Source of the DNA: Mobula hypostoma
Taxonomy: Eukaryota
Direction of reading: 5' to 3'
Assembly: GCF_963921235.1 (NCBI RefSeq)
Contig: NC_086097.1
Coordinates: 118,236,001-118,300,000 of the forward strand
Length of the DNA: 64,000 nt
Shown: positions 903 to 57,958 of the stretch, one piece after another
Position numbering within the stretch: the first letter of the stretch is position 1
Layout: the number at the start of each line of letters is the position of its first letter
Made by a program: the position numbers and the translations under genes
The notes under the pieces: generated by a model
Told to the model about the DNA's origin: nothing
What the model saw: only the letters and a program-made list of their open reading frames with translations
Databases searched by the model: none

Positions 903-930
903 AAAAGGTATCTGTTATGCTTTGTAACTT

Positions 931-3405
931 CAAAACAGTAGTAGTGAGGTCGGAGATGGTATTAAACAGGAAATTAGAAAAGTGTGCAATAAAGGAACAG
1001 CAGTTATAATGGGTGACTTCAATCTACATGTAGACTGGGTGAACCAAATTGGTAAAGGTGCTGAGGAAGAGGATTTCTTGGAATGTATGCGGGATGGTTT
1101 TTTGAACCAACATGTCGAGGAACCGACTAGAGAGCAGGCTATTCTGGACTGGGTTTTGAGCAATGAGGAAGGGTTAATTAGCGATCTTGTCGTGAGAGGC
1201 CCCTTGGGTAAGAGTGACCATAATATGGTGGAATTCTTCATTAACATGGAGAGTGACGTAGTTAATTCAGAAACAAAGGTTCTGAACTTAAAGAGGGGTA
1301 ACTTTGAAGGTATGAGACATGAATTAGCTAAGATAGACTGGCAAATGACACTTCAAGGATTGACGGTGGATATGCAATGGCAGGCATTTAAAGGTTGCAT
1401 GGATGAACTACAACAATTGTTCATCCCAGTTTGGCAAAAGAATAAATCAAGGAAGGTAGTGCACCCGTGGCTGACAAGAGAAATTAGGGATAGTATCAAT
1501 TCCAAAGAAGTAGCATACAAATTAGCCAGAGAAAGTGGCTCACCTGAGGACTGGGAGAAATTCAGAGTTCAGCAGAGGAGGACAAAGGGCTTAATTAGGA
1601 AGGGGAAAAAAGATTATGAGAGAAAACTGGCAGAGAACATAAAAACGGACTGTAAAAGCTTTTATAGATATGTAAAAAGGAAAAGACTGATAAAGACAAA
1701 TGTAGGTCCCCTGCAAACAGAAACAGGTGAATTGATTATGGGGAGCAAGGACATGGCAGACCAATTGAATAATTACTTTGGTTCTGTCTTCACTAAGGAG
1801 GACATAAATAATCTTCCAGAAATAGTAAGGGACAGAGGGTCCAGTGAGATGGAGGAACTGAGCGAAATACATGTTAGTAGGGAAGTGGTGTTAGGTAAAT
1901 TGAAGGGATTGAAGGCAGATAAATCCCCAGGGCCAGATGGTCTGCATCCCAGAGTGCTTAAGGAAGTGGCCCAAGAAATAGTGGATGCATTAGTGATAAT
2001 TTTTCAAAACTCGTTAGATTCTGGACTAGTTCCTGAGGATTGGAGGGTGGCTAATGTAACCCCACTTTTTAAAAAAGGAGGGAGAGAGAAACCGGGGAAT
2101 TATAGGCCGGTTAGCCTAACGTCGGTGGTGGGGAAACTGCTGGAGTCAGTTATCAAGGATGTGATAACAGCACATTTGGAAAGCGGTGAAATGATCGGAC
2201 AAAGTCAGCATGGATTTGTGAAAGGAAAATCATGTCTGACGAATCTCATAGAATTTTTTGAGGATGTAACTAGTAGAGTGGATAGGGGAGAACCAGTGGA
2301 TGTGGTATATTTGGATTTTCAAAAGGCTTTTGACAAGGTCCCACATAGGAGATTAGTGTGCAAACTTAAAGCACACGGTATTGGGGGTAAGGTATTGGTG
2401 TGGGTGGAGAATTGGTTAGCAGACAGGAAGCAAAGAGTGGGAATAAACGGGACCTTTTCAGAATGGCAGGCGGTGACTAGTGGGGTACCGCAAGGCTCAG
2501 TGCTGGGACCCCAGTTGTTTACAATATATATTAATGACTTGGATGAGGGAATTAAATGCAGCATCTCCAAGTTTGCGGATGACACGAAGCTGGGTGGCAG
2601 TGTTAGCAGTGAGGAGGATGCTAAGAGGATGCAGGGTGACTTGGATAGGTTGGGTGAGTGGGCAAACTCATGGCAGATGCAATTTAATGTGGATAAATGT
2701 GAAGTTATCCACTTTGGTGGCAAAAATAGGAAAACAGATTATTATCTGAATGGTGGCCGATTAGGAAAAGGGGAGGTGCAACGAGACCTGGGTGTCATTA
2801 TACACCAGTCATTGAAAGTGGGCATGCAGGTACAGCAGGCGGTGAAAAAGGCGAACGGTATGCTGGCATTTATAGCGAGAGGATTCGAGTACAGGAGCAG
2901 GGAGGTACTACTGCAGTTGTACAAGGCCTTGGTGAGACCACACCTGGAGTATTGTGTGCAGTTTTGGTCCCCTAATCTGAGGAAAGACATCTTTGCCATA
3001 GAGGGAGTACAAAGAAGGTTCACCAGATTGATTCCTGGGATGGCAGGTCTTTCATATGAAGAAAGACTGGATGAACTGGGCTTGTACTCGTTGGAATTTA
3101 GAAGATTGAGGGGGGATCTGATTGAAACGTATAAGATCCTAAAGGGATTGGACAGGCTAGATGCGGGAAGATTGTTCCCGATGTTGGGGAGGTCTAGAAC
3201 GAGGGGTCACAGTTTGAGGATAGAGGGGAAGCCTTTTAGGACCGAGGTTAGGAAAAACTTCTTCACACAGAGAGTGGTGAATCTGTGGAATTCTCTGCCA
3301 CAGCAAACTGTTGAGGCCAGTTCATTAGCTATGTTTAAAAGGAAGTTAGATATGGCCCTTGTGGCTACAGGGGTCAGGGGGTATGGAGGGAAGGCTGGGT
3401 TCTGA
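931..3405 (+). CDS. CR1 ORF2: C-terminal part of the APE endonuclease plus reverse transcriptase; uninterrupted but lacking its N-terminus
   Basis: Motifs [40 protein letters not shown]; no stop from 931 to 3405. Confidence 0.9.
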   Translation, partial: QNSSSEVGDGIKQEIRKVCNKGTAVIMGDFNLHVDWVNQIGKGAEEEDFLECMRDGFLNQHVEEPTREQAILDWVLSNEEGLISDLVVRGPLGKSDHNMVEFFINMESDVVNSETKVLNLKRGNFEGMRHELAKIDWQMTLQGLTVDMQWQAFKGCMDELQQLFIPVWQKNKSRKVVHPWLTREIRDSINSKEVAYKLARESGSPEDWEKFRVQQRRTKGLIRKGKKDYERKLAENIKTDCKSFYRYVKRKRLIKTNVGPLQTETGELIMGSKDMADQLNNYFGSVFTKEDINNLPEIVRDRGSSEMEELSEIHVSREVVLGKLKGLKADKSPGPDGLHPRVLKEVAQEIVDALVIIFQNSLDSGLVPEDWRVANVTPLFKKGGREKPGNYRPVSLTSVVGKLLESVIKDVITAHLESGEMIGQSQHGFVKGKSCLTNLIEFFEDVTSRVDRGEPVDVVYLDFQKAFDKVPHRRLVCKLKAHGIGGKVLVWVENWLADRKQRVGINGTFSEWQAVTSGVPQGSVLGPQLFTIYINDLDEGIKCSISKFADDTKLGGSVSSEEDAKRMQGDLDRLGEWANSWQMQFNVDKCEVIHFGGKNRKTDYYLNGGRLGKGEVQRDLGVIIHQSLKVGMQVQQAVKKANGMLAFIARGFEYRSREVLLQLYKALVRPHLEYCVQFWSPNLRKDIFAIEGVQRRFTRLIPGMAGLSYEERLDELGLYSLEFRRLRGDLIETYKILKGLDRLDAGRLFPMLGRSRTRGHSLRIEGKPFRTEVRKNFFTQRVVNLWNSLPQQTVEASSLAMFKRKLDMALVATGVRGYGGKAGF

Positions 3406-3501
3406 GTTGGATGATCAGCCATGATCATAATAAATGGCGGTGCAGGCTCGAAGGGCCGAATGGCCTACTCCTGCACCTATTTTCTATGTTTCTATGTTTC
3501 T
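931..3501 (+). mobile_element. CR1-clade LINE (family 1), 5'-truncated, young
   Basis: ORF2 plus 3'UTR ending in (TTTCTATG)n; possible TSD or microhomology AAAACA at 932-937 and 3502-3507. Confidence 0.95.
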
Positions 3502-11950: not shown

Positions 11951-12935
11951 CGCTCAGTAGACAACTTATTAGGTACACCTTTATACCTACTTGTTAATGA
12001 AGATATCTAATCAGCAATTATATGGCAGCAACTCAATGTGTGAAAGCATGCCGGTATGGTCTAAAGTTCGGTTGTTGTTCAGACTAAACATCAGAATGGG
12101 GAAGAAATGTGATCTAACTGACCTTGGTCATGGAATGATTACTGGTGCCAGACAGGGAGATCAGAAACTGCTGACCTTCAAGCACAGATTTTCAAGCACA
12201 GTAATCTCAGGAGTGTACAGAGAATGGTGTACATAGAACATAGAGCAGAGGAGATTTACAAGGATGTTGCCTGGATTGGGGAGCATGCATTATAAGAACA
12301 GGTTGAGTGAATTCAGCCTTTTCTCCTTGGAGTGATGGAGGATGAGGGGTGACCTGATAGAGGTGTACAAGATGATGAGAGGCATTGATCGCGTGGATAG
12401 TCAGAGGCTTTTTTCCCCAGGGCTGAAATGGCTAGCACAAGAGGGCACAGTTTTAAGGTTCTTGGAAGTAGGTATAGAGGAGATGTCAGGGGTAAGTTTT
12501 TTTATGCGGAGAGTGGTGAGTGCGTGGAATGGGCTACCGGCGACAATGGTGGAGGCAGATTCGATAGGGTCTTTTAAGAGACTCCTGGATAGGTACATGG
12601 AGCTTAGAAAAATAGAGGGCTATGGGTAACCCTAGGTAATTTCTAAGGTTAGGATATGTTTGGCATAGCTTTGCGTGCCGAAGGACCTGTATTGTGCTGT
12701 AAGTTTTCTATGTTTCTAGAGGTCAGAGGAGAAGGGACAGACTGATTCAAGTTGACAGGAAGGCGACAGTAACTCAAATAATGTGATACAGTAGTGGTGT
12801 CCAGAAGAGAGCATTTCTGAATGCACAACAGGTCAGAACTTGAAGTGGTTGGACTACAGCAGCAGAAGACCATGAACATATACTCAGTGGTTTCTTTATG
12901 AGGTGGAGTAGGTGCCTAATAAGGTGGCCACTGAC
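11951..12935 (+). mobile_element. Non-autonomous Tc1-like element interrupted by a CR1 fragment
   Basis: Colinear with 31102-31669; TIR remnants at both ends. Confidence 0.75.
12245..12717 (+). mobile_element. CR1 (family 3) 3' fragment
   Basis: MRGDLIEVYKMMRG...RVVSAWNGLP; TTTCTATGTTTCTA tail. Confidence 0.9.
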
Positions 12936-13358
12936 AGCACGTCAGTGAAATCTGATTCTGAAAGAATGAGGGGTTCTTTGAATTGCACTGTTACAGAGAA
13001 ATCCATGTAGTTAAAAGTTTCATTAGTAGTAAGTTCATTGCAGGTGAACCTTGAAAAAAAATGCACCGAAAATCAATGCTGAAAAATAGTGTTACATGAA
13101 GACAACATAAATTTGGTGAGCACTTAACATCAGAAATATTTCACCTGTGAAGAGGTAACTTATGCTGAGAAGATCCTGGTCTAATTTTTGGAGCTAACAT
13201 GAAATAACATGGAAATGTTTGTCATTAGATTCAGTCTGGGAAAAGTCAATCCTTAATTAGGCAATGGTGAAATTTACAATGTTTCATGCAATTAAATTTA
13301 CTAGCTTGGAAAATAAATAGCAAAGCCTCCCATACGTCAAGGTTTTTATTATTCCCTG

Positions 13359-13565
13359 TCAGGACTGGAATGGAAAAAGGAAGAAGCTAACTCTACCACC
13401 TTATTCTGGCTTCTTGCCCCTTCCTTTCCAGTCCTGATGAAAGGTCTCAGCTCCGAGCTTCAAATGTTTATTTCTCACCAGTGATGCTCTCTGTCCTGCT
13501 GAGTTCCTCCAGCATTTTATCTGTGCTACGCTGGATTTCCAGCATCTGCTGAATCTCTTGTGCTT
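13359..13565 (+). mobile_element. Penelope-like 3' fragment with a decayed hammerhead
   Basis: AGTCCTGATGAAAGGTCTC at 13430; CTGCTGAGTTCCTCCAGCA tail. Confidence 0.7.
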
Positions 13566-13914
13566 ATTATTCCTTGCTCATGTATGCAGTGCAATAAACA
13601 TATTTATAGGAATTACTAAGAGGCAAAATAAATTGTCAATAACTTATTATTTGTCCAAATAACTTAAAATCTGTTTATTCCACTGGTATTTTGCAATTAA
13701 TTGTTATCATTACATATTTCAGGTTATTAACTGTGTCATCTTGCAGGTTTTAATTTACCAATGCTCCTTAATTAATTCATGTAAAATAAGGTTTCCTACA
13801 AAACTGTAAACAATGTTGCACAAAAATAGCCTGTTTCATTTTGGAATGTAATTTGAACTACATTTTTACCACTACATCACTTCAGCTTCCTAAATATTCT
13901 TTAACTCTGAGTAC

Positions 13915-14378
13915 TGTCATAGTGCACGCCCACAGGACTGGACCCAAGTGTGGAGGGACAGCAGACTCTCTCTGTCATGGTGGTCACTGGCACCAACTCA
14001 ACCCAGGAACGGAGGAAAGGCAGCCTCTGTCACAGAATGCCCTGGCAATGACTTGACCTAGCAGCAAAAGAACTGCAGACTCCCCAGAAAGAGATGGAAA
14101 CAGTAAGTTAGACATAGGAATACCAACAGAACATTGGAGGGACAACTGGCCAACACCACAGAACAACTCATTCTCCACAAACACACAGTAGGACACCACT
14201 TACAGAGCATAAGGAGAGTCCCCTTTAAATAATCATGGAGTCTGGGAAACGTGCCAGTCGCAATTAACCGAAAACAGCTGGGCTTAACGGCTCTGACAAT
14301 CAGTAAATACAGGTGCTCGAGAAACCTCGAAGTCCAATGCTCGATGGCAAGCCTCAGAGGCCCGCAGTGCTCATGACA
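13915..14378 (-). mobile_element. Probable solo LTR related to the LTRs at 25185 and 27093
   Basis: TGTCAT...ATGACA termini; GGACCCAAGTG is the reverse complement of the CACTTGGGTCC 3' motif; TSD not matched. Confidence 0.6.
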
Positions 14379-14429
14379 GTTTACCTTGGTTACCAGGCCT
14401 TGACCAAGGTGACATGTTAACACGGATTT

Positions 14430-14750
14430 AAGATTAGTTTTATTTGTCATATGTACATTGAAACATATAGTGAAATGAGTTGTTTGCATCAAATCAAATT
14501 CGCAAGGATTGAGCTAGAGAAGCCTGGAAGTATCACCACGTTTCCAACACTAACATAGCATACCCACAACTTACCAACCCTAACCTGTACATCTTTGGAA
14601 TGTGGGAGGAAACCAGAGCACATGAAGGAAACCCACACAGTCATGTAGAGGACATACAAATTCCCTATAGGCAGTGGTGGGAATTGAACCTCTTTCTTAC
14701 AGTTGGTAACTTAAAGTGTCATGCTAACCACAATACTACTGTGCCTCCCC
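14430..14750 (-). mobile_element. HE1/V-SINE-like element
   Basis: TGTGGGAGGAAACCAGAGCAC...GGAAACCCAC; GGAATTGAACC is a reverse B box. Confidence 0.75.
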
Positions 14751-14764
14751 ATACGTAGCTCCAC

Positions 14765-15060
14765 AGCATGGCTTAGTGAGCAGAGTTGCTGTCTCACTGC
14801 CCTATCAGATTGCGTTTGATCACAGTCTTAGGTGCTGTCCATGTGGAGTTTATATGTTCTCGCTGTGACCATGTTGGCTTCCTCTTGGTATGCAGATCAG
14901 TAGGACATTTGGCTATTGCACAAGGACCGCGTGTGTAGGTGTGTAATAGAACTTGTGGTAGGTTAATGGAATTTGATAAGAATAATTCCCGGAGGAATAG
15001 AATTCCTCCGGGAGCCAGCATAGACATGAATGGCTGAAATGACCCACTTCTGAGCTGTCA
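14765..15060 (+). mobile_element. HE1/V-SINE-like element, divergently oriented to the previous copy
   Basis: A-box-like TGGCTTAGTG; GTGGAGTTT..ATGTTCTC..TGTGACC motif. Confidence 0.65.
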
Positions 15061-15249
15061 GGAAATATATGAATATTCAAACATGAAATAACCAGGCTCC
15101 TTTCTTCTAAGCATCCGTAAGTGAATGCTAAGGAGAGAAATGAACCCATATCTTCTTCTTTGTGTGGATTTTTTGTTATCTGAATGGACGATGAAACAAC
15201 CCATGAACACAACCTCACTATTTTTGCTCTCCTTTTACACTATTTTTTT

Positions 15250-16200
15250 TAATATGTTCGTGATTCTGCTGCTGAGCCCATCTACTTCAAGACTCAATGT
15301 GTTGTACATTCAGAGGTGCTCTCCTGCACACTACTGTTGTAATGTGTGATTGTTTGGGTTACTGTCACCTTCTTGGCAGCTAGAATCAGAATCAGAATAA
15401 GAAACGGGGTTAATGTCACTGTCACCATCATCATGTGCCATGTCATATGACATGGACGATCATAGTCTTACATCTGTCTTTACTCTGAGAAGTTCTAATA
15501 AGCTCTTTATATTTTTGCCTGTCCATCAAACTCCTAACGAAATATAGTCACTGTTGTAATTGCATTAATATATTAGGCCCAGATAGATCTTTGGAGATTT
15601 TGACTCCCCAACTTGAAACTGCTCACCCTTTCTACTGTTGATCCCTCTTTGAGGACTGGTGTGTGCTCTCTCAACTTCAGTCAATCAGTTCATTGGTCTT
15701 ACTGATGTTGAGGGCAAGGTTGTTGGTGGACACCACTCAACCAGCTGCACTATACCACTCCTGTACACCAACTGAAATTCTGCCAACAATAGTAGAGTCA
15801 TCGGCAAAATTACAGATGGCATTTCAGCTTGAACCAGTCTGGCCATTCTCCTCTGACCTCTCTCATTAACAAAACATTTTTACGCACTGCTGCTCACTGG
15901 ATTTTCTTTGGGGTGAGGTTTTCACACCATTCTCTGGACACTGTTGTGTGTGAAAATCCCAGGAGATCAGCAGTCTTTGAGATACTCAAACTACTACATC
16001 TGGCACCAACAATTGTTCCACAGTTAAAGTCACTCAGATTCCATTTATTCTCCATGCTAATGTTTGGTCTGAACAACTGAACTTCTTGATCATGTCTGCA
16101 TGCTTTTATGTATTGAGTTGCTGCCACATGATTGCTTGATTAGGTATTTGCATTAAAGAGCAGATATACAGATATACCTGATAAAGAGCCCACTGAGTGT
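15250..16200 (-). mobile_element. Non-autonomous Tc1-like element interrupted by Rex1-like fragments (about 15383-15825)
   Basis: Reverse complement of the 31102-31669 family; ends CCACTGAGTG-TA. Confidence 0.7.
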
Positions 16201-17199
16201 AGATTTCTTATTGTAATTTATAGTTTCATTTAATGTATTGCACTCTACTGCTGCCACAAAACAACATATTTAATAACATATATCAAGGATATTAAACCTG
16301 ATTCTGATTCTTCATAAAATCAAAACTTCTCTATGGTTACACAGCTATGGAGTCTGACCATGGGATTTTAAGGTAATCAATATGCCAGAAGATGATAAAT
16401 GCATAATTGAATCACATCTAATTAGGGTACCCAAGCTGTTGAATGTACCTTCAATCACATGGTGCTAACAGATTGCATTTATAAGATGATAATAAGATGA
16501 GTCGTCATATGATAAACATAAACATTCATCTTAAACTGAATTCTATGGAGGTCAATGAGGAGGTGTATGAGTGGGGAGACAGAAGGGGATAAATATATCA
16601 GAGATTATCAGGTTGTAAATGTTTGAAGTCTCAATGTGTGAGGATCATACTTTTGGAATTAATTTGGGACAATCAATAGGAAGTAAAGGTGCAAAGAATC
16701 CAACAGTGTCCATTTTCCTTCTGCAGCGTCACTGGGTGGGCTGTAAATTTGACTCTTGACCCTCATCTAGACAACCTAGATGGACAATCATGTGAATAGG
16801 CTCATCCATTTGAAGCAGTGAAGTTTCTCCTCTGCAGCTTTGAGGGATAGAATCAGAATCAGAATTAGTTTTAATACCTCCAACATAGAGTATGTTGTAA
16901 AAGTCATTGTTTCGTGGCAGCAGTACAGTGCAATAAATAATAAATATTATCAATTACTATGTATGTATATTATATATATATATATATATAATGTAATATG
17001 TATATGAGGGAAGCCATCATGGCTGTGTGTCAGTGGGGAATGGGGTGGCCTCACTTACTGGAGTTGGCTTTGCTTTCAGTGGTGCTGTGCAGACTGTAGG
17101 GGGTTCCAGGCCTACATTACAGTGCTTACGAGGGTAATTCTTCCTGGCCGAGTAGTAGGGCAGATAAAATCTGAAGCAGGCACTGGGGCCCACATGGAC

Positions 17200-19945: not shown

Positions 19946-20220
19946 GATACAGCTGTGAATTGTGACCTTCCTGAATCACTCCTGCCTAAGTTATGGTTGA
20001 AAGTTGTCACATTAAATGAAAATTTTCATTAAAATTGATAAGTTTGTGTAATGTTATGAGACTTTATTATTGTTACAAATTGGTATCATCATTGAGATTT
20101 ATATAAATTCCCTATCTGGAAACTAACAGAACAAAATCATTATATTAGTTACATCAGTACACTCAACATTACAAAGTCAATATTTTAAATGAGTGTGTTT
20201 TCTCATTTTATTGTTCTTTT

Positions 20221-23200
20221 AGAACCATAGAACCATAGAACCATAGAAACTACAGCACAGAAACAGGCCCTTTGGCCCTTCTTGGCTGTGCCGAACTATT
20301 TTCTGTCTAATCCCACTGACCTGCACAACGACCATATCCCTCCATACACCTCCCATCCATGTATCTGTCCAATTTATTCTTAAATGCTAAAAAAGAACCC
20401 GCATTTACCACCTCATCTGGCAGCTCATTCCATACTCCCACCACTCTCTGTGTGAAGAAGCCCCCCCTAATGTTCCCTTTAAACTTTCCCCCCCTCACTC
20501 TTAATCCATGTCCTCTGGTTTTTTTCTCCCCTTGCCTCAGTGGAAAAAGCTTGCTTGCATTCACTCTATCTATACCCATCATAATTTTATATACCTCTAT
20601 CAAATCTCCCCTCATTCTTCTACGCTCCAGGGAATAAAGTCCTAACCTATTCAACCTTTCTCTGTAACTGAGTTTCTCAAGACCCGGCAACATCCTTGTA
20701 AACCCTTTCTGCGCTCTTTCAACCTTATTTATATCCTTCCTGTAATTTGGTGACCAAAACTGAACACAATACTCCAGATTCGGCCTCACCAATGCCTTAT
20801 ACAACCTCATCATAACATTCCAGCTCTTATACTCAATACTTTGATTGATAAAGGCCAATGTACAAAAAGCTCTCTTTACAACCCTATCTACCTGTGATGC
20901 TACTTTTAGGGAATTTTGTATCAGTATTTCCAGATCCCTCTGTTCCACTGCACTCCTCAGTGCCTTACCATTAACCCTGTATGTTCTACATTGGTTTGTC
21001 CTTCCAACGTGCAATACCTCACACTTGTCAGTATTAAACTCCATCTGCTATTTTTCAGCCCATTTTTCCAGCTGGTCCAAGTCCCTCTGCAGGCTCTGAA
21101 AACCTTCCTCACTGTCTACTACACTTCCAATCTTTGTATCATCAGCAAACTTGCTGATCCAATTTACCACATATCATCCAGATCATGGATATAGATGACA
21201 AATAACAATGGACCCAGCACTGATCCCTGTGGCACACCACTAGTCACAGGCCTCCACTCAGAGAAGCAATTCTCTACCACCACTCTCTGGCTTCTTCCAT
21301 CGAGCCAATGTCTAATCCAATTTACCACCTCTCCGTGTATACCTAGCGACTGAATTTTCCTAACTAACCTCCCATGCGGGACCTTGTCAAAGGCCTTACT
21401 GAAGTCCATGTAGACAATATCCACTGCCTTCCCTTCATCCACTTTCCTGGTAACCTCCTCGAAAAACTCCAACAGATTGGTCAAACATGACCTACCATGC
21501 ACTAAGCCATGTTGACTCTCCCTAATAAGCCCCTGTCTATCCAAATGCTTGTAGATTCTGTCTCTTAGTACTCCCTCCAATAACTTACCTACTACGGACG
21601 TTAAACTCACCGGCCTATAATTTCCCGGATTACTTTTTGATCCTTTTTTAAACAACGGAACAACATGAGCCACTCTCCAATCCTCCGGCACTTCATCCGT
21701 AGACAGCGACATTTTAAATATTTCTTCCAGGGCCCCCGCAATTTCAACACTAGTCTCCTTTAAGGTACGAGGGAACACTCTGTCAGGTCCGGGGATTTAT
21801 CCACTTTAATTTTCCTCAAGACAGCAAGCACCTCCTCCTTTTCAATCTGTACAGTTTCCATGGTCTCACTACTTGATTCCCTCAATTCCATAGATTTCAT
21901 GCCAGCTTCCTTAGTAAATACAGAAGCAAAAAATCCATTTAAGATCTCCCACATTTCCTTTGGTTCCGCACAAAGCCGACCACTCTGATCTTCAAGAAGA
22001 CCAATTTTATCGCTTACAATCCTTTTGCTTTCAATATACTTGTAAAAACTCTTTGGATTATCCTTCACTTTGACTGCCAAGGCAACCTCATGTCTTCTTT
22101 TAGCCCTCCCGATTTCTTTCTTAAGTATTTTCTTGCACTTCTTATACTCCTCAAGCACCTGATTTACCCCCTGTTTCCTATACATTTCATACAACTCCCT
22201 CTTCTTCTTTATCAGAGTTGCAATATCACTTGAGAACCAAGGTTCCTTATTCCTATTCAATTTGCCTTTAATCCTGACAGGAACATACAAACTCTGCACT
22301 CTCAAAATTTCCCCTTTGAAGGCTTCCTACCTACCAATCACATCTTTGCCAGAGAACAACCTGTCCCAACCCACGCTTTTTAGATCCTTTCTCATTTCTT
22401 CAAATTTGGCCTTCTTCCAGTTCAGAACCTCGACCCTAGGACCAGATCTATCTTTGTCCATGATCAAATTGAAACTAATGGTGTTATGATCACTGGAACC
22501 AAATTGCTCCCCTACACAGACTTCTGTCACTTGCCCTAATTCGTTACCTAACAGGAGATCCAATATTGCATCCCCTCTAGTTGGTCCCTCTATATATTGA
22601 TTTAGAAAACTTTCTTGAACACATTTTACAAACTCTAAACCATCTAGACCCCTAACAGTATGGGAGTCCCAATCAATGTATGGAAAATTAAAATCCCCTA
22701 CCACCACAACTTTATGTTTCCTGCAGTTGCCTGCTATCTCTCTGCAGATTTGCTCTTCCAAGTCTCGTTGACAATTGGGTGGTCTGTAATACAATCCCAC
22801 TAATGTGGCCATACCTTTCCTGTTTCTCAGCTCCACCCATAAGGACTCAGTAGACAAGCCCTCTAATCTGTCCTGCCTGAGCACTGCTGTAATATTTTCC
22901 CTGACAAGCAATGCTACTCCCCCACCTTTCATTCCTCTGCCTCGATCATATCTGAAACATCGGAACCCTGGAATATTAAGCTGGCAGTCCTGCCCCTCCT
23001 GTAGCCAAGTTTCATTAATTGCTACAACATCATAATTCCACGTGTCTATCCACGCCCTCAAATCATCCGCCTTCCCCGCAATACTCCTAGCATTGAAATA
23101 TATACACCTCAGAAGATTTTTACCACCACTCACAACCTTTCTATCAGCGGATTTGCTTAAACTTTCAACACCATTTATTTTCACCCCAGCCACACTGTCA

Positions 23201-23797
23201 GTTCTGACACTCTGGTTCCCATCCCCCTGCAAATCTAGTTTAAAGCCTCCCCAATAGCACTAACAAATCTCCCTGAAAGGATATTTGTCCCCCTGTGGTT
23301 CAAGTGTAACCCGTCTCTCTTGTACAGGTCCCACCTGCCCCAGAAGAGGTCCCAATGATCCTGAAATCTGAAACTCTGCCCCCTATACCAGTTCCTCAGC
23401 CACTTGCTCCTCCTCCAGAGCATCCTATTGCTACCCTCACTGGCACCTAGCACAGGTAGCAATCCTGAGATTACCACCCTGGAGGTCCTGCTTTTCAACT
23501 TCCTACCAAGCTCTCTATACTCACTGTCCAGGACCTCTTCACTCTTCCTTGCTATGTCATTGGTACCGATGTGCACCACGACATCTGGCTGGTCACCCTC
23601 CCACTTCAGAATGTCATGCAATCGATCAGAGACATCCTTGACCCTGGCACCCGGGAGGCAACAAATCATCCTGGATTCTCTGTCACGACCACAGAACCTT
23701 CTATCTGCACCTCTAACTATCGAGTCCCCTATCTCTACCGCTCTCCTCTTTCCCCCCTCCCTTCTGCACTGCAGAGCCAGACTCAGTGCCAGAGATC
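20221..23797 (-). mobile_element. CR1-clade LINE (family 2) copy 1: partial SGNH-esterase ORF1 plus disrupted ORF2
   Basis: ORF1 CLPGA..VVVHIGTND..DGLHLN (23235-23669); ORF2 EN (YFNARSI, ETWL, GDFN, SDHN) and RT split by a TAG at 22327 and frameshifts near 21790 and 21172; (TGGTTCTA)n tail. Confidence 0.95.
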
Positions 23798-40317: not shown

Positions 40318-43300
40318 TGTGCTATGTTTCTTCTTAACAAAGCCAGACTTAGCGTGGATAAGCGCTTGAACATTTTTATTCAGGGCACTGTTCTGCTCTC
40401 AGTACATGCAACCAGTTTGCCAACATCACTTCCAGTTCCAGGTGAGCCACCCACATTGCACACTGGGAATTGAAGATCCTTATTATGCACACATAATAAC
40501 ACATCTTGCCCCTTTAAAGAAAAACAAATTCAAAACTATGCTCTCATAAACCTGCAAGGAACAATAAACCTTTCTAACAAAGAATTCTACATTCTGTAGT
40601 CAGTCCTTTCTTCATTCATCAAATTTAAATCAGTCTTTGAGGTGGTTTAATGATACTTTTTGGTCTGCTGTTTGTTTCCACAAGTGTATTACTTGCATTC
40701 GTTGTAACTCTCTGAGAATTCTGATCAACAAGTTCATTTTTTACATATGCTGGCTCCTTTGCTGTACTGACAAGTGATGTGTCACAGCTATGGGTTGGAG
40801 CTTGTGGTTGTAGATCCACACAATTCCTTCTCAGGGGTGTTCCTCGCTCTATCTGGATCTGATAAGAATGTGGACTTACTTCCTCTTGCACATATCCTTG
40901 CATGGACCATCTGCCGGAATCATGATTGCATATTCACACTTGATCTCCAGGGTTCAGGACTGGTAGGCAGTCTTGTTGTGATACTATTTAACTTCCCCCT
41001 TCAGGTAGCCAATTTGACCTTGTGAGCTCCTTTAGGTGTCAACAGATTTTTATACACTGGAAAGTTAGTTTGAATGCTTCTAGCCATCAGCATTTGGACT
41101 CGTGCAAGTTTCTTCTGCAGTGGTGCACTTCAGTAAATCATTAAATTTTTGTGGAAATCCTCTTGTCATTGTGCTTTCTTCATGAGGCCCTTCACTACCT
41201 TGACCAAATTCTCTGCTAGGCTATTTGAATATGCGTGATGTGGGCTTGAAGTTATATGGCTATACACCCAATCATTGGGAAAGGACTCAAATTCACAGCT
41301 CGAAAATTGTGGACCATTGTCTGATAATACTTCACATGGAACTCCATGCCTCAGAAACACAGCTTTCATGAAGGTGATGACTGCTTTGCTGGATGTTGAT
41401 TGCAGTGTTGCAACCTCTGGGTAATTGGATAAGAGGTCTCTTACAACAATACAACTCTTCCCATTACAAGCAAACATATCCACTTCATATTTGAAGTACA
41501 GAATGTCTGATACAGGGTGTGATGTAAGCGGTTCTGCTTGCTGCTTTGGTCTGTAGCTAAGGCATAGTTCACTTGAAGCAATGGTCTGGCTGATGACTTG
41601 GTTCATTCTTAGCCAGTACATCTCTTCCCGAGCTCTATGTTTGCATCTTTTCTACCTTTTGGAGCATTTCAATGTGTAGCAACAGTGGAATCACAAATCT
41701 GTTCCCTTTGAAGACCATATCTTCTACTACCAGTAGATCAATTCTGCATGCCCAATAATCAAGAGCACACATTTGACAGTCTTTCTTGGCTGCTGGCCAT
41801 CCTTTCTGTATTGTGTATTTGAGTACTTTCACTGCTTCATTTGTCCCTGCTGCTTTCCTAATCCTCCCTGTTCTATCAGGAGATGCTTCAATGAAGACGA
41901 CAATTATGTCAACATAGCCCTGCACGAATCTCTCGGTCACTCTTTCCTTTCTTGTTGACTGTTGGAGACAGCACATCAGCAGCAAACATATATTTTCCCA
42001 GTGTGTAGATTATCTTCATATCATACTACTGCAGCCTTATCAACATGCGCCGGATCCTCATGGTTTGGAAATAATTGAGAGCGGTGGTTTATGGTGTGTC
42101 TCCACTTCAAAAGCCTGTCCACTGATGGAAAGATTTGCATGCAAATGTGCTGGCAAGAAGCTTTTTCTCTCTCTGCGCTTTGTTGGCTTCTGCACTTGTT
42201 AAAGCCCTTGATGTTTAGGCCACCAGCTGCCAGGTGTCATCATGCTGCTGCAGTACTATTGCTCCAAGGCCGTACCGAGACACTTCAGCCGAGATCCTCG
42301 TACACCTTTCCAGATCATAAGACTATAGCACAGGTTCTTCACTTAGGGCTCTTTTCAGTATCTGGAAACAATCTTCTTGCTTGTGAGACCAAATCCACTT
42401 ATTTTGCTGCTCAAGGAGTGCCTTATGTTGTGCTGACACAGTAGGCTGCCGAAGGATCAACTTAGCCAGGTAAGTCACCATCTCTAAGAAACATCACACC
42501 TCCTTTTTGTCCTAGGGCTTCTCCATGTCTTCAATAGCTGATGTCTTTCTTGGGTCAGGCTTCACTCCTTCTTCCAATATGACATCTCCTATGAAAGTCT
42601 AAACTCACTTTTCTCTTTATTTAATTTCAAATTGACATTCTGTATCACATCAAGCACATGACTCAGTGGTGCATCACGTTCATCCTTGGTGGACACCCAG
42701 ATGATGATACATCCATTATCATCTTGATTCCAGGTATGCCCTCAGAGATCATGTGGTTGGCTTTATGGTGGACTTCTGGTGCAGACATCATCCCATACAG
42801 TAGTGAAAGAAAGTGATACCTTCTTTGTGGTGTGTTAAAACTACACAGTCTCATATCTGCCTCTTCAAGCTTCCTCTGCCAAAACCTAGAGAACATGTTG
42901 AATTTGCTAAACCACTTGGCACCTGCAAACTGGGACATGACCTCTTCCCATGTTGGCAATTTAAAATGCTCTTGCCATGGCTTTAGTGAGTTCTTTTCAT
43001 CTAGACATATCCACAATGCTCCATTTTTCTTTTGTTTGATGACTAGTGAGCTCACCCAAACTGATGGTTCTTCAATTTTCTGTATGATGCTTATCTGTTC
43101 CATGCGTGCTCTTTCCTGTTTAGGATTGTCTCTAACTGCAAACAGAACTTCCTAGCATGTATGAACACCAGGAGCTAACTGTCTGATCTACATGAATTTT
43201 GTGTACTCCAGGTAATCATCTGAGCCCCTCAAAGCTGCCTGCATACTCTTCCATGAGAGTTGTGTGATCACCTTCAGTCTGTGAAGCCACTATGCATAAC

Positions 43301-44628
43301 TGTTTCACCAGGTTGAGCTTTTCACATGCACTCAAACCTAATATTGGCTGTACTCACTTTTCTACCATCAGTAGTGGTGCCTTTAGGTGTGTCCCTCGTG
43401 CTTGATTTCACTATACAGCCCTCTTTTTCTGGAAAGATCTTTCTAATGTAATCTGTCACTTTTAAGTTCACTGGGTAAATATAGATTTTTATTTTGAGAG
43501 TCTTGTTATCATCAATGGATAACAAATTCATCTGGGCTCCAGTGTCAAGCTTGAATGGAATTACTGTCTCATTCACAGTTAGCAGATCAACCCGTTCCAT
43601 CTTATCAGCACCAGTAGTCTGGACAGAATCCACAAAGACTTCCACCATCTCCTCAGTAATAATGTGCACCTTTCTCTTGATAGCCCCAGCTTTGCAGCAC
43701 TTTGCAAAATGATTCTTCTTCCTACAATTATTGGATGAATTTCCATAAGAAGGACACGTCCTTGGGATGTGCCTACATCCACATTTGCCGCATTTGCTGT
43801 AAACCCTACCTGTACACTTTGCTGGTGCTTTGGGAAACTCCTTTACTCTGTTCCATTGTTTTCACAGCATGCACTGTTATGTCTGCTCTGAGCTGCTCCT
43901 TAGCTTGTGATTGTGTGGTCTCTGCTGCCCTGCACATACACACAGGCATTTCCTGTGCCAAACTTAACACCTTACTTCTGATCACAGGAAAATAAATTAT
44001 ATCTCTCAGATGTGATGTTTTTACATGTGATGTTTTACTTTTATTTGGCAACATACTCCTTAAATGTTGCCATTAGTGTGTTGAACATAAAGGTTGCCTC
44101 ATCAATTGAAAAGCTGTTTTAGATTTCCAAAGCATCTTTGCCAATTACATGTAGAAAAATAGAGGCATTGAAATTTTCACCAGTCCTTCCCACTCCACTA
44201 GCTGCTAAATATATATTGAATCCTTGTTTGAAGTATTTCCAGTTATCAGATTTCCTGTAAAATGCATTGGTGCAGGAGGACATAGCTTACCCATGCAGGA
44301 ATTTATGGCCCCTCACCTGAATTTATTAGAAGTCCTGTGAACGTTGAACTTCAAGAACACTTGCTTCCCTCTGTCACTAATGGTTCTTTCTTAGTCGCAC
44401 ACTGTATTGATTTACACTCTGTGTTTAAACCTTATGCCGACTTCTAACACCGTGTTATGTTTGTTCTTAATAAAGACAAATTTAGCATGAGTAAACACTA
44501 ATGCATTTTTATTTGGAATACTGTTCAAAACTCAACGTGTACAACCAGCTCACCAAAATCTCTTCCTGATCTGGGTGAACCACTCGCATTGCTCACTGGG
44601 ATCTTTATCATGCAGACATAATGACACA
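40318..44628 (-). mobile_element. Decayed full-length Gypsy LTR retrotransposon with short LTRs
   Basis: LTRs at about 40318-40503 and 44453-44628; PBS-like GACTTCTAACACC and PPT-like TCTTGCCCCTTT adjacent; gag, protease (FKLDTGAQ), RT (WVSSLVI), RNase H and integrase (SDNGPQF) in Gypsy order, with many stops. Confidence 0.9.
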
Positions 44629-44769: not shown

Positions 44770-46099
44770 TATGGCTTGTCACAGTTATCGTTTGGAAAGG
44801 CCAGGTGATGCAGATTTCAAAGCTTTATAAATACACTGACTCCTCAAACCTTGCCCCAACCATCACCAGCCATGGGCTCCTCTATGCAGTTGCCCAGCAC
44901 TCTTAAAATTAAAATAAATGATGTCCACAAAGCAGGAGAAGGCTATAACAAGATAGCAAAGGGTTTTCAGGTAGCCGTTTCCTCAGTTCGTAATGTATTT
45001 AAGAAATGGCAGTTAACAGGAACTTTGGAGGTCAAGTTGAGGTCTGGAAGACCGAAAAACATTCCAAGAGAACCAGAGAGGCAAATCAAAACCCCCATCT
45101 GACTGCAAAAGACCTTCAGGAAGATTTAGCAGACTCTGGAGTTGTGGTGCACTATTCTACTGTGCAGTGACATCTGCACAAATATGACCTTCATGGAAGA
45201 GTCATCAGAAGAAAACCTTTCCTGCATCCTCAACACAAAATTCAGCGTCAGAAGTTTGCAAAGGAACATCTGAACAAGGCTGATGCATTTTGGAAACAAG
45301 TCCTGTGGACTGATGAATTTAAAATAGAACTATTTGGCCACAATGAGCAAAGGTATGTTTGGAGAAAAGAGGGTGCAGAATTTTATGAAAAGAGCACCTC
45401 TCCAACTGTTAAGCACAGGGGTAGATCGATCATGCTTTGGGCTTGTGTTCCAGCCAGTGGCACGGGGAACATTTCACTGGTAGAGGGAAGAATGAATTCA
45501 ATTAAATACCAGCAAATTCTGGAAGCAAACATCACACCATCTGTAAAAAAGCTGAAGATGAAAAGAGGATGGCTTCTACAACAGGATAACGATCTTAAAC
45601 ACACCTCAAAATCCACGATGGACTACCTCAAGAGGCGCACGCTGAAGGTTTTGCCATGGCCCTTGAAGTCCCCTGACCTAAACATCATTGAGAATCTGTG
45701 GATAGACCTCAAAAGAGCAGTGCATGCAAGACGGCCCAAGAATCTCACAGAACTAGAAGCCTTTTGCAAGGAAGAATGGGTGAAAATCCCCCAAGCTAGA
45801 ATTGAAAGGCTCATAGCTGGCTACAGAAAGCATTTACAAGCTGTGATACTTGCCAAACGGGGTGTTACTAAGTACTGACCATGCAGGGTGCCCAAACTTT
45901 TGCTTCGGGCCCTTTTCCCTTTTTGGTATTTTGAAACAGTAAAAGATGGAAATAAAAAAGGAACCTTGCTTAAAATATTAAAGAAATGTGTCATCTTTAA
46001 CTTTATGCCTTTTGGAAATCAGGTCATCTTTTACTCGCTGAACTATTCACAGTAACAGAGGTTTTGTCCAGGGATGCCCAAACTTCTGCATGCAACTGC
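44770..46099 (+). mobile_element. Tc1 transposon (IR/DR type) lacking its left end; transposase pseudogene about 44872-45878
   Basis: SGRP, VLWTDE, QQDNDLKH, SPDLNIIENLW; right end with inner and outer DR GCCCAAACTT(T/C)TGC near 45889 and 46076. Confidence 0.92.
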
Positions 46100-46548
46100 A
46101 TACAGTGAAGTGTGTCATTTAAGTGAAACCATAGAAACCATAGAAACTACAGCACAGAAACAGGCCCTTTGGCCCTTCTTGGCTGTGCCGAACCATTTTC
46201 TGCCTAGTCCCACTGACCTGCACACGGACCATATCCCTCCATACACCTCCCATCCATGTATCTGTCCAATTTATTCTTAAATGTTAAAAAAGAACCCGCA
46301 TTTACCACCTCGTCTGGCAGCTCATTCCATACTCCCACCACTCTCTGCGTGAAGAAGCCCCCCTTATTATTCCCTTTAAACTTTTCCCCCCTCACCCTTA
46401 ACCCATGTCCTCTGGTTTTTTTCTCCCCTTGCCTCAGTGGAAAAAGCCCGCTTGCATTCACTCTATCTATACCCATCATAATTTTATATACCTCTATCAA
46501 ATCTCCCCTCATTCTTCTACACTCCAGGGAATAAAGTCCTAACCTATT

Positions 46549-46810
46549 CATAGAAACATAGAAACATAGAAAATAGGTGCAGGAGTAGGCCATTCGGCCC
46601 TTCAAGCCTGCACCGCCATTTATTATGATCATGGCTGATCATCCAACTCAGAACCCTGCCCCAGCCTTCCCTCCATACCCCCTGACCCCTGTAGCCACAA
46701 GGGCCATATCTAAATCCCTCTTAAACATAGCCAATGAACTGGCCTCAACAGTTTGCTGTGGCAGAGAATTCCATAGATTCACCACTCTCTGTGTGAAGAA
46801 GTTTTTCCTA
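46549..46810 (-). mobile_element. CR1 family 1 3' end inserted in CR1 family 2
   Basis: Reverse complement of about 3248-3501; imperfect duplication AACCTATTCA / AACCTTTCA. Confidence 0.92.
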
Positions 46811-48763
46811 AACCTTTCAACCTTTCTCTGTAACTGAGTTTCTCAAGACCCGGCAACATCCTTGTAAACCCTCTCTGCACTCTTTAAACCTTATTTATAT
46901 CCTTCCTGTAATTTGGTGACCAAAACTGAACACAATACTCCAGATTCGGCCTCACCAATGCCTTATACAACCTCATCATAATATTCCAGCTCTTATACTC
47001 AATACTTTGATTAATAAAGACCAATGTACCAAAAGCTCTCTTTACAACCCTATCTACCTGTGATGCTACTTTTAGGGAATTTTGTATCAGTATTCCCAGA
47101 TCCCTCTGTTCCACTGCACTCCTCAGTGCCTTACCATTAACCCTGTATGTTCTACGTTGGTTTGTCCTTCCAACGTGCAATACCTCACACTTGTCAATAT
47201 TAAACTCCATCTGCCATTTTTCAGCCCATTTTTCCAGCTGTTCCAAGTCCCTCTGCAGGCTCTGAAAACCTTCCTCACCGTCTACTACACCTCCAATCTT
47301 TGTATCATCAGCAAACTTGCTGATCCAATTTACCACATTATCATCCAGATCATTGATATAGATGACAAATAACAATGGACCCAGCACTGATCCCTGTGGC
47401 ACACGACTAGTCACAGGCCTCCACTCAGAGAAGCAATTCTCTACCACCACTCTCTGGCTTCTTCCATCGAGCCAATGTCTAATCCAATTTACCACCTTTC
47501 CACGTATACCTAGCAACTGAATTTTCCTAACTAACCTCCCATGCGGGACCTTGTCAAAGGCCTTACTGAAGTCCATGTAGACAATATCCACTGCCTTCCC
47601 TTCATCCACTTTCCTGGTAACCTCCTCGAAAAACTCCAACAGATTGGTCAAACATGACCTACCATGCACTAAGCCATGTTGACTCTCCCTAATAAGCCCC
47701 TGTCTATCCAAATGCTTGTAGATTCTGTCTCTTAGTACTTCCTCCTATAACTTACCTACTACTGACGTTAAACTCACCGGCCTATAATTTCCTGGATTAC
47801 TTTTTGATCCTTTTTTAAACAACGGAACAACATGAGCCACTCTCCAATCCTCCGGCACTTCACCCGTAGACAGCGACATTTTAAATATTTCTGCCAGGGC
47901 CCCCGCAATTTCAACACTAGTCTCCTTCAAGGTACGAGGGAACACTCTGTCAGGTCCCGGGGATTTATCCACTTTAATTTTCCTCAAGATAGCAAGCACC
48001 TCCTCCTTTTCAATCTGTACAGTTTCCATGGTCTCACTACTTGATTCCCTCAATTCCATAGATTTCATGCCAGCTTCCTTAGTAAATACAGATGCAAAAA
48101 ACCCATTTAAGATCTCCCACATTTCCTTTGGTTCCGCACAAAGCCGACCACTCTGATCTTCAAGAGGACCAATTTTATCGCTTACAATCCTTTTGCTCTT
48201 AATATACTTGTAAGAGCTCTTTGGATTATCCTTCACTTTGACTGCCAAGGCAACCTCATGTCTTCTTTTAGCCCTCCTGATTTCTTTCTTAAGTATTTTC
48301 TTGCACTTCTTATACTCTTCAAGCACCTGATTTACCCCCTGTTTCCTATACATTTCATACAACTCCCTCTTCTTCTTTATCAGAGTTGCAATATGACTTG
48401 AGAACCAAGGTTCCTTATTCCTATTCAATTTGCCTTTAATCCTGACAGGAACATACAAACTCTGCACTCTCAAAATTTCCCCTTTGAAGGCTTCCTACCT
48501 ACCAATCACATCTTTGCCAGAGAACAACCTGTCCCAATCCACGCTTCTTAGATCCTTTCTCATTTCTTCAAATTTGGCCTTCTTCCAGTTCAGAACCTCA
48601 ACCCTAGGACCAGCTCTATCCTTGTCCATGATCAAATTGAAACTAATGGTGTTATGATCACTGGAACCAAAGTGCTCCCCTACACAGACTTCTGTCACTT
48701 GCCCTAATTCGTTACCTAACAGGAGATCCAATATTGCATCCCCTCTAGTTGGTCTCTCTATAT

Positions 48764-49617
48764 TGTTACGTACCCCGTAACTGGGTTGCCAAACCAGCAG
48801 AAATGGATCACTCAGTTGGAGTCTGGAGTACTAGAACTAAGAAAGTTTTATTAAAGAAACAAGCAACACAGTAATCGAAAGGATAATAAATGCAACAGTT
48901 CAGCGATGATAAACACACGTGCACAGAATTAAGATAACAGCATCAATCAAGCTCTATCGTTGTCTAGGGGTAAATGACCAAATTTCAAAATGACTCAAAG
49001 TTCAGTCCAGTTCAGTTCGCAGTAATCGTTGCCATGGCGATGGACAATGTGGGGGAAGAGAGAGATAGAACAGGAACAACTGATCATTCAGAACACTGCT
49101 TCACTCACAGACCTGCGAGATGGCTCACAAGCAGCTTTTGGGCGGGTCTTTGGTGATGTCACCTGAGGTCACCGACTGTGACCCCTCCTCCAGATGCGGT
49201 CGATCCTCTGCAGTGAACCCGGCACCCAGGCAAGGGCGGACACACACCGGGTTCCCACTGATCGTACCTTTCCACCCTGGCCATTGTCTGGTACTTCCCA
49301 CTGACTCGTGAGAAGCGTACCGCTTCCAGGGTCTCGTTACCTCGGGTGGCGGGTGTCCCTGTCTTAGCGAACCTGTCCCTTTTTATCCCCCTGCTGGGGC
49401 ATCGCCTGTCCACCACTTCAAACAGTTCAGGGTTCAAAGGGGGAGCCGCTCCAGACAGCTCTCTCTCTCCCACGTCCCTTCATTACACATCTCCAGACGC
49501 TGCTCCATTGTTCCTTATCTCTCCTTCCCCTGAGGGCAGGTGGCAGACCAACTGCTGATGCCACTGATGCTAGCCCAGGCCAGCAAACATCTTAATTTTA
49601 TGTGTATTCTCGTAACA
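48764..49617 (-). mobile_element. Young solo LTR (854 bp) inserted in the CR1 endonuclease region
   Basis: TGTTACG...CGTAACA termini, TSD ATAT (48760-48763, 49618-49621); AATAAA on the minus strand near 48850; many CpGs retained. Confidence 0.92.
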
Positions 49618-51224
49618 ATATATTGATTTAGAAAACTTTCCTGAACACATTTCACAAACTCTAAACCATCTAGACCCCTAACAGTATGGGAGTCCCAATC
49701 AATGTATGGAAAATTAAAATCCCCTACCACCACAACTTTATGTTTCCTGCAGTTGCCTGCTATCTCTCTGCAGATTTGCTCTTCCAAGTCTCGTTGACTA
49801 TTGGATGGTCTGTAATACAATCCCACTAATGTGGCCATACCTTTCCTGTTTCTCAGCTCCACCCATAAGGACTCAGTAGACAAGCCCTCTAATCTGTCCT
49901 GCCTGAACACTGCTGCAATATTTTCCCTAACAAGCAATGCTACTCCCCCACCTTTCATTCCTCTGCCTCGATCATATCTGAAACATCGGAACCCTGGAAT
50001 ATTAAGCTGCCAGTCCTGCCCCTCCTGTAGCCAAGTTTCATTAATTGCTACAACATCATAATTCCACGTGTCTATCCATGTCCTCAACTCATCCGCCTTC
50101 CCCGCAATACTCCTAGCATTGAAATATATACACCTCAGAAGATTTTTACCACCACTCACAACCTTTCTATCAGCGGATTTGCTTAAACTTTCAACACCAT
50201 TTATTTTCACCCCAGCCACACTGTCAGCTCTGGCACTCTGGTTCCCATCCCCCTGCAAATCTAGTTTAAAGCCTCCCCAATAGCACTAACAAATCTCCCT
50301 GAAAGGATATTTGTCCCCCTGTGGTTCAAGTGTAACCCGCCTCTCTTGTACAGGTCCCACCTGCCCCAGAAGAGGTCCCAATGATCCTGAAATCTGAAAC
50401 CCTGCCCCCTACACCAGTTCCTCAGTCACTTGCTCCTCCTCCAGAGCATCCTATTCCTACCCTCACTGGCACCTAGCACAGGTAGCAATCCTGAGATTAC
50501 CACCCTGGGGGTCCTGCTTTTCAACTTCCTACCAAGCTCTCTATACTCACTGTCCAGGACCTCTTCACTCTTCCTTGCTATGTCATTGGTACCGATGTGC
50601 ACCACGACATCTGGCTGGTCACCCTCCCACTTCAGAATGTCATGCAATCGATCAGAGACATCCTTGACCCTGGCACACGGGAGGCAACAAACCATCCTGT
50701 ATTCTCTGTCACGACCACAGAACCTTCTATCTGCACCTCTAACTATCGAGTCCCCTATCACTACGGCTCTCCTCTTTCCCCCCTCCCTTCTGCACTGCAG
50801 AGCCAGACTCAGTGCCAGAGATCTGGCTACTGCAGCTAGTCCCAGGTAAGTCATCCCCCCCAACAGTATCCAATGCGGTATACTTGTTGCTGAGGGGAAT
50901 GGCCATAGGGGAACCCTGCTCTGCCTGCCCTTTCCCCTTCCCTCGCCTGACAGTGACCCAATTTCCTGTCCTCTGCTCCTTTGGCGTAACTACCTCCCTG
51001 TAGCTACGATCTATAATCTCCTCATTCTCCTCATGTTGAAGAACCAACACAGTCTGAGGAATACACCAAGGTTACTCTACATATCATCATTTTCCAATGA
51101 TAACCATTTTAAAAATACGAAGCATTCTGTTCTTTTCCTGTCAAATTGGATAGTCTCACATTTTTCACATTGTCCACATTTCCATATTGTTCCTCATCTA
51201 CCATCTGCTCAGCTTATTTATTCA

Positions 51225-56300: not shown

Positions 56301-57958
56301 CTAACACGGTAACAAGAAGAGTAGAGGTTTTAGCGGAGGAGTGTTTTTACAATCTACTCACTGATTTGGAGAAAGCAGAAGCCATATCACTACCTATGGA
56401 CTCGTCATGTGACCGAACCGATATGGAAGAGCTATCTGTGTTCGCAAGATTTTTTGATGGAAAGATCTTTTGGGAAGAGCTACTTTGATTGCTTCCTCTG
56501 CCTGGGCGCACAACTGGGGAAATAATTTTTAACAAATTGACACAGTTCTTTGAGAAGAATGGCTTGGATGTGAGCAAAATTGTGTCCGTTGTCACCGATG
56601 GGGCTCTGTCGATGGTGGGACAACACAAGGGCTTGATAAGCAGATTTGCTGCTGTTAACCCAGCACTCTTGGCATTTCATTGCATTATTCACAAATCAGT
56701 GTTGTGCATTAAACTGTGTGGGGAAATGAAAGAGGCTATGGATACTGTGACGTGACTGGTAAATTTCGTTCGTGAGAGATCAAGTCTGCAACATTGCCCC
56801 TTCAGAGCATTGCTGGAGGAAATGTCAGCGGAACACAAAGAACTTTTGCTGCATAATGATGTTCGTTGGCTGAGCAAAGGCTGTGTGTTAGAGAGGGTGT
56901 GTGACCTGCATAATGAGCTTGTGACATTTTTATCTAGCCTGCAGAGCCAAAAACCCCAACGATTTAAGAGGTTTTTAAGTGACAACAATGTGATGGCACA
57001 TTTTTTTTTGTGTGACATCTTGTCTCATCTAAATGAACTTATTCTGCAATGACAAGGCAACAACCACACTGTTGCGGACATGTACGAGGCGATTGAAGCT
57101 TTCCGGTCGAAGCTGAACTTTTGGAGAGACATTCACGGGAGAAAGTTGCACTTTCCACCTCTGCAGGAGCATTGCGAGAAGAATGAAATGCAAGAGGATC
57201 CGGTGATGAAGGATTTCGTGATGAGCCTGGCAGAAAACTTCAGGGAACAATTTGAAAGCTCCCCTAAACTCTCAGGTGACATCCTCCTCTTCCTGAGACA
57301 GCCATTCTCCATTTCGGATGATGTCCAGTGGACTGCAGAGGCCAAAAGGCTGGTGCCTTCCATAGATGAGGCAACTCTTCAGATGGAGGTCTTGGAAATG
57401 GGAACATGTGATTTGCTCAAAGCACAACACAAGGACATTGGGGCGAGTGACTTTTGGATCAACGTGGCTCCCCAAGCTCAACTTAAAAACATGAGAGCTA
57501 TTGCAATGCTCCTACTCACACTGTTCCCCTCCACATACATATGTGAGTCATCGTTTTCTTCAATGAGCTCTATCAAGAATCAGGACAGAAACAGACTCTC
57601 CAATGCACATCTTGGCCAGTGCCTCAGGATTGCCACAACAGAATACAGGCCCGACATCAGAAATATTGCCTCAACCCATCACTGTTATTTCTCTCACTGA
57701 TTGGTGAGTGAATCAATTTATTTTTGTCCATTTGGCAATCTTATTGTGGTATAATAATATTACAACAACAATAATACTGAATATTTCATTTATAGCTACA
57801 CTGCATGCTTCAAATGCTACATAGCTTAATTAAAAAGAACAAATAGATTAACTGAGAGAACAGAAACAGTGGAAAAGACAGCACTACTAAAACTCCTTGT
57901 GTGTAAGAGAAGTGTTATTTGTGTGGAAGAGAAGTGGTGAAGACTACGATGTTTACTC

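Follow-up and report, generated by a model that had tools for sequence, protein, structure and literature searches.

Minus-one ribosomal frameshifting is textbook knowledge for retroviruses and coronaviruses. The ORF1a/1b frameshift site of IBV, for example, is U_UUA_AAC, and this heptamer, G_GGA_AAC and A_AAA_AAC are among the four most shifty in mammalian ribosomes according to the portion of a review available to us (PMC5009743). The same portion describes arterivirus frameshifting as stimulated by poly(C)-binding protein and a natural G-quadruplex stimulator as anticipated but unknown as of 2016, and leaves CR1 unmentioned in its first 300,000 characters. How ORF2 is translated has been settled for few LINEs (SART1 and L1, both by reinitiation). 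According to the accessible part of a review (PMC5911963), TRE5-A and TRE3-A of Dictyostelium depend on a −1 frameshift, and since these elements are, like CR1, APE-type non-LTR retrotransposons, they offer a precedent in LINEs for a −1 frameshift to ORF2, although lineage and ORF1 differ. For Paramecium LINEs, +1 shifting, reinitiation or readthrough has been suggested (PMC5405496, in the sections seen). In most vertebrates CR1 itself makes up the leading group of retrotransposons (PMC13343379, in part). Full-text literature searches found, in the sources they covered, no claim of frameshifting for CR1, and an earlier remark is possible, for instance in the chicken and turtle CR1 work of 1997 or in Repbase; the word frameshift is absent from the main texts of PMC13343379 and PMC3905857, PMC4120745 makes no mention of it, and the excerpts seen of PMC11835228 and PMC4255032 contain nothing relevant to CR1 frameshifting.

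The window, by which we mean the whole stretch of 64,000 nt of Mobula hypostoma DNA that was analysed, holds two minus-strand copies of one subfamily of a CR1-type LINE. Copy 1 (20220..23797) is 5′-truncated and decayed, with stops and frameshifts in ORF2, and copy 2 (46123..51035, the 5′ end being approximate) is interrupted at 48764-49617 and 46551-46805. Because the copies are 95.8-98.0% identical and have an ORF1 frame break in common, copy 2 is not independent evidence and the junction was counted once. That break lies in a G/A run just before the ORF1 esterase domain (23757-23775, minus strand, and the matching stretch of copy 2) and may be a defect of the source element or a homopolymer error. 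Both decayed copies are fossils, and any mechanism belongs to the source element. A second CR1 subfamily, 5′-truncated and with an ORF2 open for 825 codons, occupies 928-3500 on the plus strand; its 3′ end appears to be inserted in copy 2 at 46551-46805, and the interruption at 48764-49617 is a further insertion of 854 nt. Open reading frames at 41166-43861, 45171-45878, 57053-57700 and 62619-63155 resemble gypsy-, Tc1-, hAT- and Penelope-type remnants.

The ORF1 domain of copy 1 (23235..23756, minus strand), which ends in ALN-stop, is an SGNH/GDSL esterase (PF13472, E 3e-11) whose profile matches the ORF1 esterase 4C1B of ZfL2-1 (E 7e-40), and its named best homologues are from rays and sharks. 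The −1 frame that follows encodes an endonuclease (PF03372, E 5e-19) and then a broken reverse transcriptase (RT); this ORF2 survives in pieces (20307..23244, minus strand), and copy 1 aligns along the entire endonuclease-RT relative P0204. The 3′ tail consists of short tandem 7-mers without poly(A) (20220..20246, minus strand). The hallmarks of CR1 are thus present (SGNH ORF1, APE endonuclease and RT, tandem-repeat 3′ tail, 5′ truncation), and from this architecture, together with a by-eye match to CR1-labelled consensus rows, we classify the element as a CR1 LINE with an esterase ORF1. It has the same domain layout as canonical vertebrate CR1 (PMC13343379; for ZfL2-1 esterase 4C1B, PMC3905857), and its junction matches shark and ray rows by eye.

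As the original prediction had described, ORF1 of copy 1 terminates in GCT TTA AAC TAG on the minus strand, with the slippery heptamer U_UUA_AAC in ORF1 phase at 23238..23244 and the stop UAG abutting it at 23235..23237. The second copy was likewise said to carry this junction, and does so at 50261..50270, with TTTAAAC in phase at 50264-50270. A −1-frame stop five codons upstream of the heptamer (23260..23262) closes the overlap between the two ORFs, and there is no AUG between that stop and the heptamer. The linker from the heptamer to the endonuclease motif YFNARS (23101..23237, about 45 codons) is open in the −1 frame only, with five stops in each other frame, and contains no in-frame AUG; its openness in this frame was matched by 3% of dinucleotide shuffles. 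Counted from the heptamer, YFNARS stands at codon 49 and ETW at codon 78 (23005..23100), and the first in-frame AUG follows at codon 105 (22930..22932), which bears out the claim that it lies past the endonuclease motifs; translation begun there could not give a complete endonuclease. In an alignment ETW matches E43 of the L1 endonuclease, a catalytic residue, and a protein started at codon 105 would lack the ETW glutamate because this AUG lies 3′ of the aligned residue. Three AUGs occur in the first 170 nt, all out of the ORF2 frame. The assertion that ORF2 has no usable AUG holds for AUG itself, but in-frame near-cognates (UUG at codon 5; GUG at codons 18, 21 and 38) make a start elsewhere possible. 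In copy 1 the density of canonical heptamers is 0.003 per base, giving a chance of about 0.02 over the six to seven in-phase positions of the overlap, so that the heptamer at this one locus alone is only modestly unusual and weak evidence.

In the window, as at a metagenome locus described below (L016), a heptamer of the form X_XXY_YYZ, in phase with the upstream ORF, precedes a −1 ORF that is open from that site and has no start of its own, the arrangement by which frameshift signals are recognized. The junction resembles retroviral gag-pol and coronavirus ORF1a/1b in heptamer class, phase, the upstream structural ORF and a −1 enzyme ORF without its own start; it differs in that the host is a non-LTR retrotransposon, that no stable hairpin was found 3′ of the site and that the stop abuts the heptamer. 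On this anatomy, and on the conservation and in-phase heptamer swaps documented below, we infer that ORF2 is very probably made by programmed −1 ribosomal frameshifting, to give an esterase-endonuclease-RT fusion. Termination at the UAG, which yields the esterase ORF1p by itself, would be the usual outcome; a minority of ribosomes would move back by one base on U_UUA_AAC and continue into a fusion of ORF1p, linker, endonuclease and RT, after the manner of retroviral Gag-Pol, and the ratio of enzyme to ORF1p would be set low. No protease domain was seen in this element, in contrast to gag-pol, so the fusion would stay whole or need host cleavage.

To follow the terminus through relatives, we combined 47 matches from a search with the ORF1 esterase and the 150 top-ranking matches to a profile, which itself ended in LN, into a set of 186 distinct proteins besides the query, of which 113 were judged C-terminally complete. 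Among these complete proteins 67 end in LN, 11 in GN, 2 in KN, 2 in SN and 31 otherwise. LN, GN and KN are the in-phase translations of U_UUA_AAC, G_GGA_AAC and A_AAA_AAC, respectively, so that 80/113 have a heptamer-type end, and the terminal residue is Asn in 83/113. Clustering the 96 whole-domain sequences kept, at 60% identity, gave 44 representatives, and a heptamer-compatible terminal tripeptide is present in 25 of the 44 against a background of 3.4%, although one of the 25 (PPL of L016) is due to chance. The distance from the DGLHL motif to LN varies from 25 to 39 residues, which ties LN to the stop rather than to the fold. The residue before the dipeptide appears, at the protein level, to track the first base of the heptamer as the heptamer demands: before LN it has pyrimidine-ending codons only in 10/19 clusters and purine-ending codons only in 1/19, and before GN the figures are 0/6 and 5/6 (LN versus GN, Fisher p 0.0014, a value that overstates independence, as p-values do here, since the clusters are kin to one another and all GN rows form one clade).

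No heptamer-type end was found in 33/113 proteins and 19/44 clusters, some of them broken and some with an internal KN, FF or GF, seen at the protein level only. In the tree, 12 of the 14 rows in the clade that includes the window protein end in LN, another clade, of 12 rows, combines GN, LN, EN and near-terminal FF or GF, and in a clade of 4 rows that resemble the ZfL2-1 esterase the terminal heptamer dipeptide is missing, unlike in the window CR1; since that clade does without it, the terminal motif is not a requirement of the esterase. Many of the unnamed ORF1 clades, we infer, have invertebrate hosts. One unnamed CR1 family ending in YLN (P0196, P0198, P0200) has an SH3-like stretch before the esterase (PF00018/PF14604 for P0196 and P0198). 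Three shark-like CR1 proteins, P0010, P0036 and P0204, are filed under Pseudomonas, Proteus and Carnobacterium, probably through host contamination of bacterial assemblies.

Such a frequent terminal Asn could mean that LN-stop is a C-terminal signal of ORF1p acting in the protein, with the heptamer as a by-product. Every DNA junction observed, however, uses, out of the 12 ways to encode Leu-Asn, the single codon pair that makes the heptamer; the residue before the dipeptide covaries with the first base of the heptamer, and the motif is internal in L016; we consider this protein-level reading largely refuted and give it hardly any weight.

The supplement of PMC13343379 gives the first 400 nt of each vertebrate consensus, from which we selected rows on TTTAAACT, and in 19 of the 44 TTTAAACT-containing rows the heptamer was seen by eye at the end of ORF1. 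The host prefixes of these 19, as we interpret them, stand for sharks, rays, a chimaera, bowfin, a teleost, coelacanth, a frog, a lizard and crocodilians, and the codon after the heptamer is TAG in 11, TAA in 6, TGA in 1 and no stop in 1. A check with Gly-Leu-His 9-mers of ORF1, picked after inspection of the heptamer rows and hence not blind, returned 17 matches, 9 of them in ORF1 and 8 showing the junction, with the heptamer in 8/8. Conservation of heptamer and phase in relatives, which the original prediction had put forward as a check, extends well beyond the window family and includes in-phase swaps to other canonical heptamers. The upstream in-frame AUG that was named as counter-evidence is absent in the window family, but UAAUG with its AUG in the ORF2 frame occurs in 3 of the 19 rows (ScyCan_CR1-1a, SquAca_CR1-17a and SquAca_CR1-6c), and metagenome locus L015 has a nearby AUG. 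The searched part of the PMC4316615 supplement yielded 3′-end matches only. In the rows SquAca_CR1-18 and SquAca_CR1-3 the 5′ UTR, which precedes ORF1, holds another TTTAAACT-stop motif as well as a motif resembling a splice donor.

The consensus rows also bear on the idea that ORF2 is reached by splicing or from an internal promoter. An acceptor-like TTTGCAG/G does stand at the window junction, but its AG is not kept in the crocodilian, frog or lizard rows, and a transcript from an internal promoter would likewise offer no AUG in the ORF2 frame ahead of the endonuclease. We consider this explanation very improbable.

Contigs from sequencing runs were mapped to 22950-23560, and three of the four runs were informative, with 12,500-16,886 contigs each (run X21 had 2 reads). 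None of the 40 variant rows listed, beside which 82 more exist, falls in 23208-23261, and another variant-free gap, of 60 nt, lies at 23063-23121; the seven linker variants among those listed create no stop and no in-frame AUG. Contigs of a divergent subfamily break off behind 23244 (270-307 per run) and before 23208 (158-176 per run), and these break points delimit a 37-nt island (23208..23244, minus strand) that has the heptamer's first base as its 5′ end and that both subfamilies share. The same contigs speak to the idea that slippage during transcription, or some other one-base insertion of non-ribosomal origin at the T/A runs, brings ORF2 in frame. In-frame ORF1-ORF2 fusions, natural or mis-called, do exist in databases (P0188 and P0192). 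The T/A runs, however, are just 3-6 bases long, no indel row at a frequency of at least 3% is present among the variant rows listed for these 12,500-16,886 DNA contigs per run (contigs drop rare variants), and the X_XXY_YYZ phase is a ribosomal signature, so that we see next to no likelihood in such an insertion. Two more database fusions, P0197 and P0199, join P0188 and P0192; the linker has one Met in P0188 and none in the other three. We set all four aside as proof of a ribosomal slip, since indels of one base or errors in gene calling may account for them, and they show an open linker only. A search for longer ORF2 homologues gave 2 proteins, uninformative on starts.

Metagenomes were scanned with a pattern of the ORF1 core that did not include the heptamer, giving seven loci, four of which end before the junction, and all three that reach it carry an in-phase canonical heptamer. 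L014 and L015 have G_GGA_AAC-UAG. L016, the cleanest junction of the three, has A_AAA_AAC inside a 14-codon overlap: its −1 frame opens three codons before the heptamer, the ORF1 stop follows 11 codons after it, and the intact −1 frame runs for 958 codons, with its first Met at codon 156. In L015 the −1 frame contains an AUG two codons upstream of the heptamer and, ahead of the endonuclease, a further one at codon 64, and the openness of its linker in −1 was matched by 0.3% of dinucleotide shuffles (the shuffle test covered the window and L015). ORF1-based scans of viral contigs, prokaryotic genome contigs, plasmids and phages found no CR1; nine loci on prokaryotic contigs were set aside, all being weak matches to prokaryotic SGNH proteins. 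Because three canonical heptamers held in one phase before a −1 ORF would be hard to obtain otherwise, this pattern points to selection for ribosomal slippage.

It is against these loci that termination-reinitiation, of the SART1 UAAUG type or the AUG-independent L1 type, has to be weighed. Ribosomes would stop at the UAG and restart at the UUG of codon 5, which is in frame in the window ORF2, or at another near-cognate, with the heptamer as a passenger. Reinitiation is the established mode for SART1 (PMC2881922) and L1 (PMC5972666), in the parts of those papers seen, and CR1 shares with both a bicistronic LINE RNA whose ORF2 relies on translation of ORF1; some shark rows have UAAUG as well. 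The nearby AUG of L015 would also suit reinitiation, as would UGGGA motifs (motif 1 of the TURBS, known from the calicivirus type of reinitiation) 92-117 nt upstream of the ORF1 stop. These motifs, however, belong to Trp-Asp codons, and with 154 occurrences in the window the 5-mer is not above chance. No AUG overlaps or adjoins the ORF1 stop in the ORF2 frame in the window family, and the codon after the stop varies freely whereas the heptamer does not. SART1 and L1 yield a separate ORF2p, and the conserved feature of CR1 is the heptamer, not a start codon. Reinitiation leaves unexplained both the three different canonical heptamers in one phase and L016, in which 11 codons separate the heptamer from the stop. 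We regard it as unlikely to be the way ORF2 is made, although it may be a second, coexisting route in the UAAUG subfamilies.

Frameshifting in the viral systems raises the matter of a 3′ stimulator. The G-rich tract reported 3′ of the heptamer is there, at 23218..23227 (minus strand), 10 nt after the site, and is a candidate for this role. Most consensus rows share with the window, L014 and L015 a G-tract 10-12 nt past the heptamer (G4Hunter 1.1-1.5), which in the latter three ranks in the top 1-3% of element windows by G4Hunter. L016 has no G-tract and its 3′ stretch is C-rich, so the tract is not universal. The G-quadruplex or pseudoknot stimulator that had been implied is thus no more than a candidate: the tract is present, but the local folds modelled 3′ of the heptamer, of the hairpin type, are no better than shuffles (z −1.7 to +1.4). 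A hairpin 3′ of the copy-1 heptamer (z −2.2) was rejected as private to copy 1 and absent from copy 2. Pairing with the far 3′ end of the element beat shuffles in one of three query windows of copy 1 (1 and 6 of 200), mostly through G-U pairs and not with the best partner; copy 2 and L016 did no better than shuffles, and the L015 sequence lacks its 3′ end. Support for long-distance pairing of the luteovirus type was weak and not convincing in the window copies. Our guess is that the stimulator would be the abutting stop codon and the G-rich island and not a stable hairpin. The C-rich tract that takes the place of the G-tract after A_AAA_AAC in L016 (about 2975-3013) is reminiscent of the arterivirus type of shifting stimulated by poly(C)-binding protein.

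More broadly, the −1 slip might be both the ancestral and the principal way in which CR1 LINEs with an esterase obtain their RT throughout the animals, retained for about 450 million years and stimulated by the abutting stop and the conserved G-tract, as a G-quadruplex or a protein-binding site, and not by a pseudoknot; we offer this tentatively and think it doubtful as a whole. If frameshifting at the heptamer is true, the CR1 enzyme would be an ORF1p fusion made at a fixed ratio, the missing AUG of ORF2 would be explained and the starts of CR1 ORF2 would have to be re-annotated. It would also guide the building of working CR1 retrotransposition assays, and host factors that influence frameshifting could then act on CR1.
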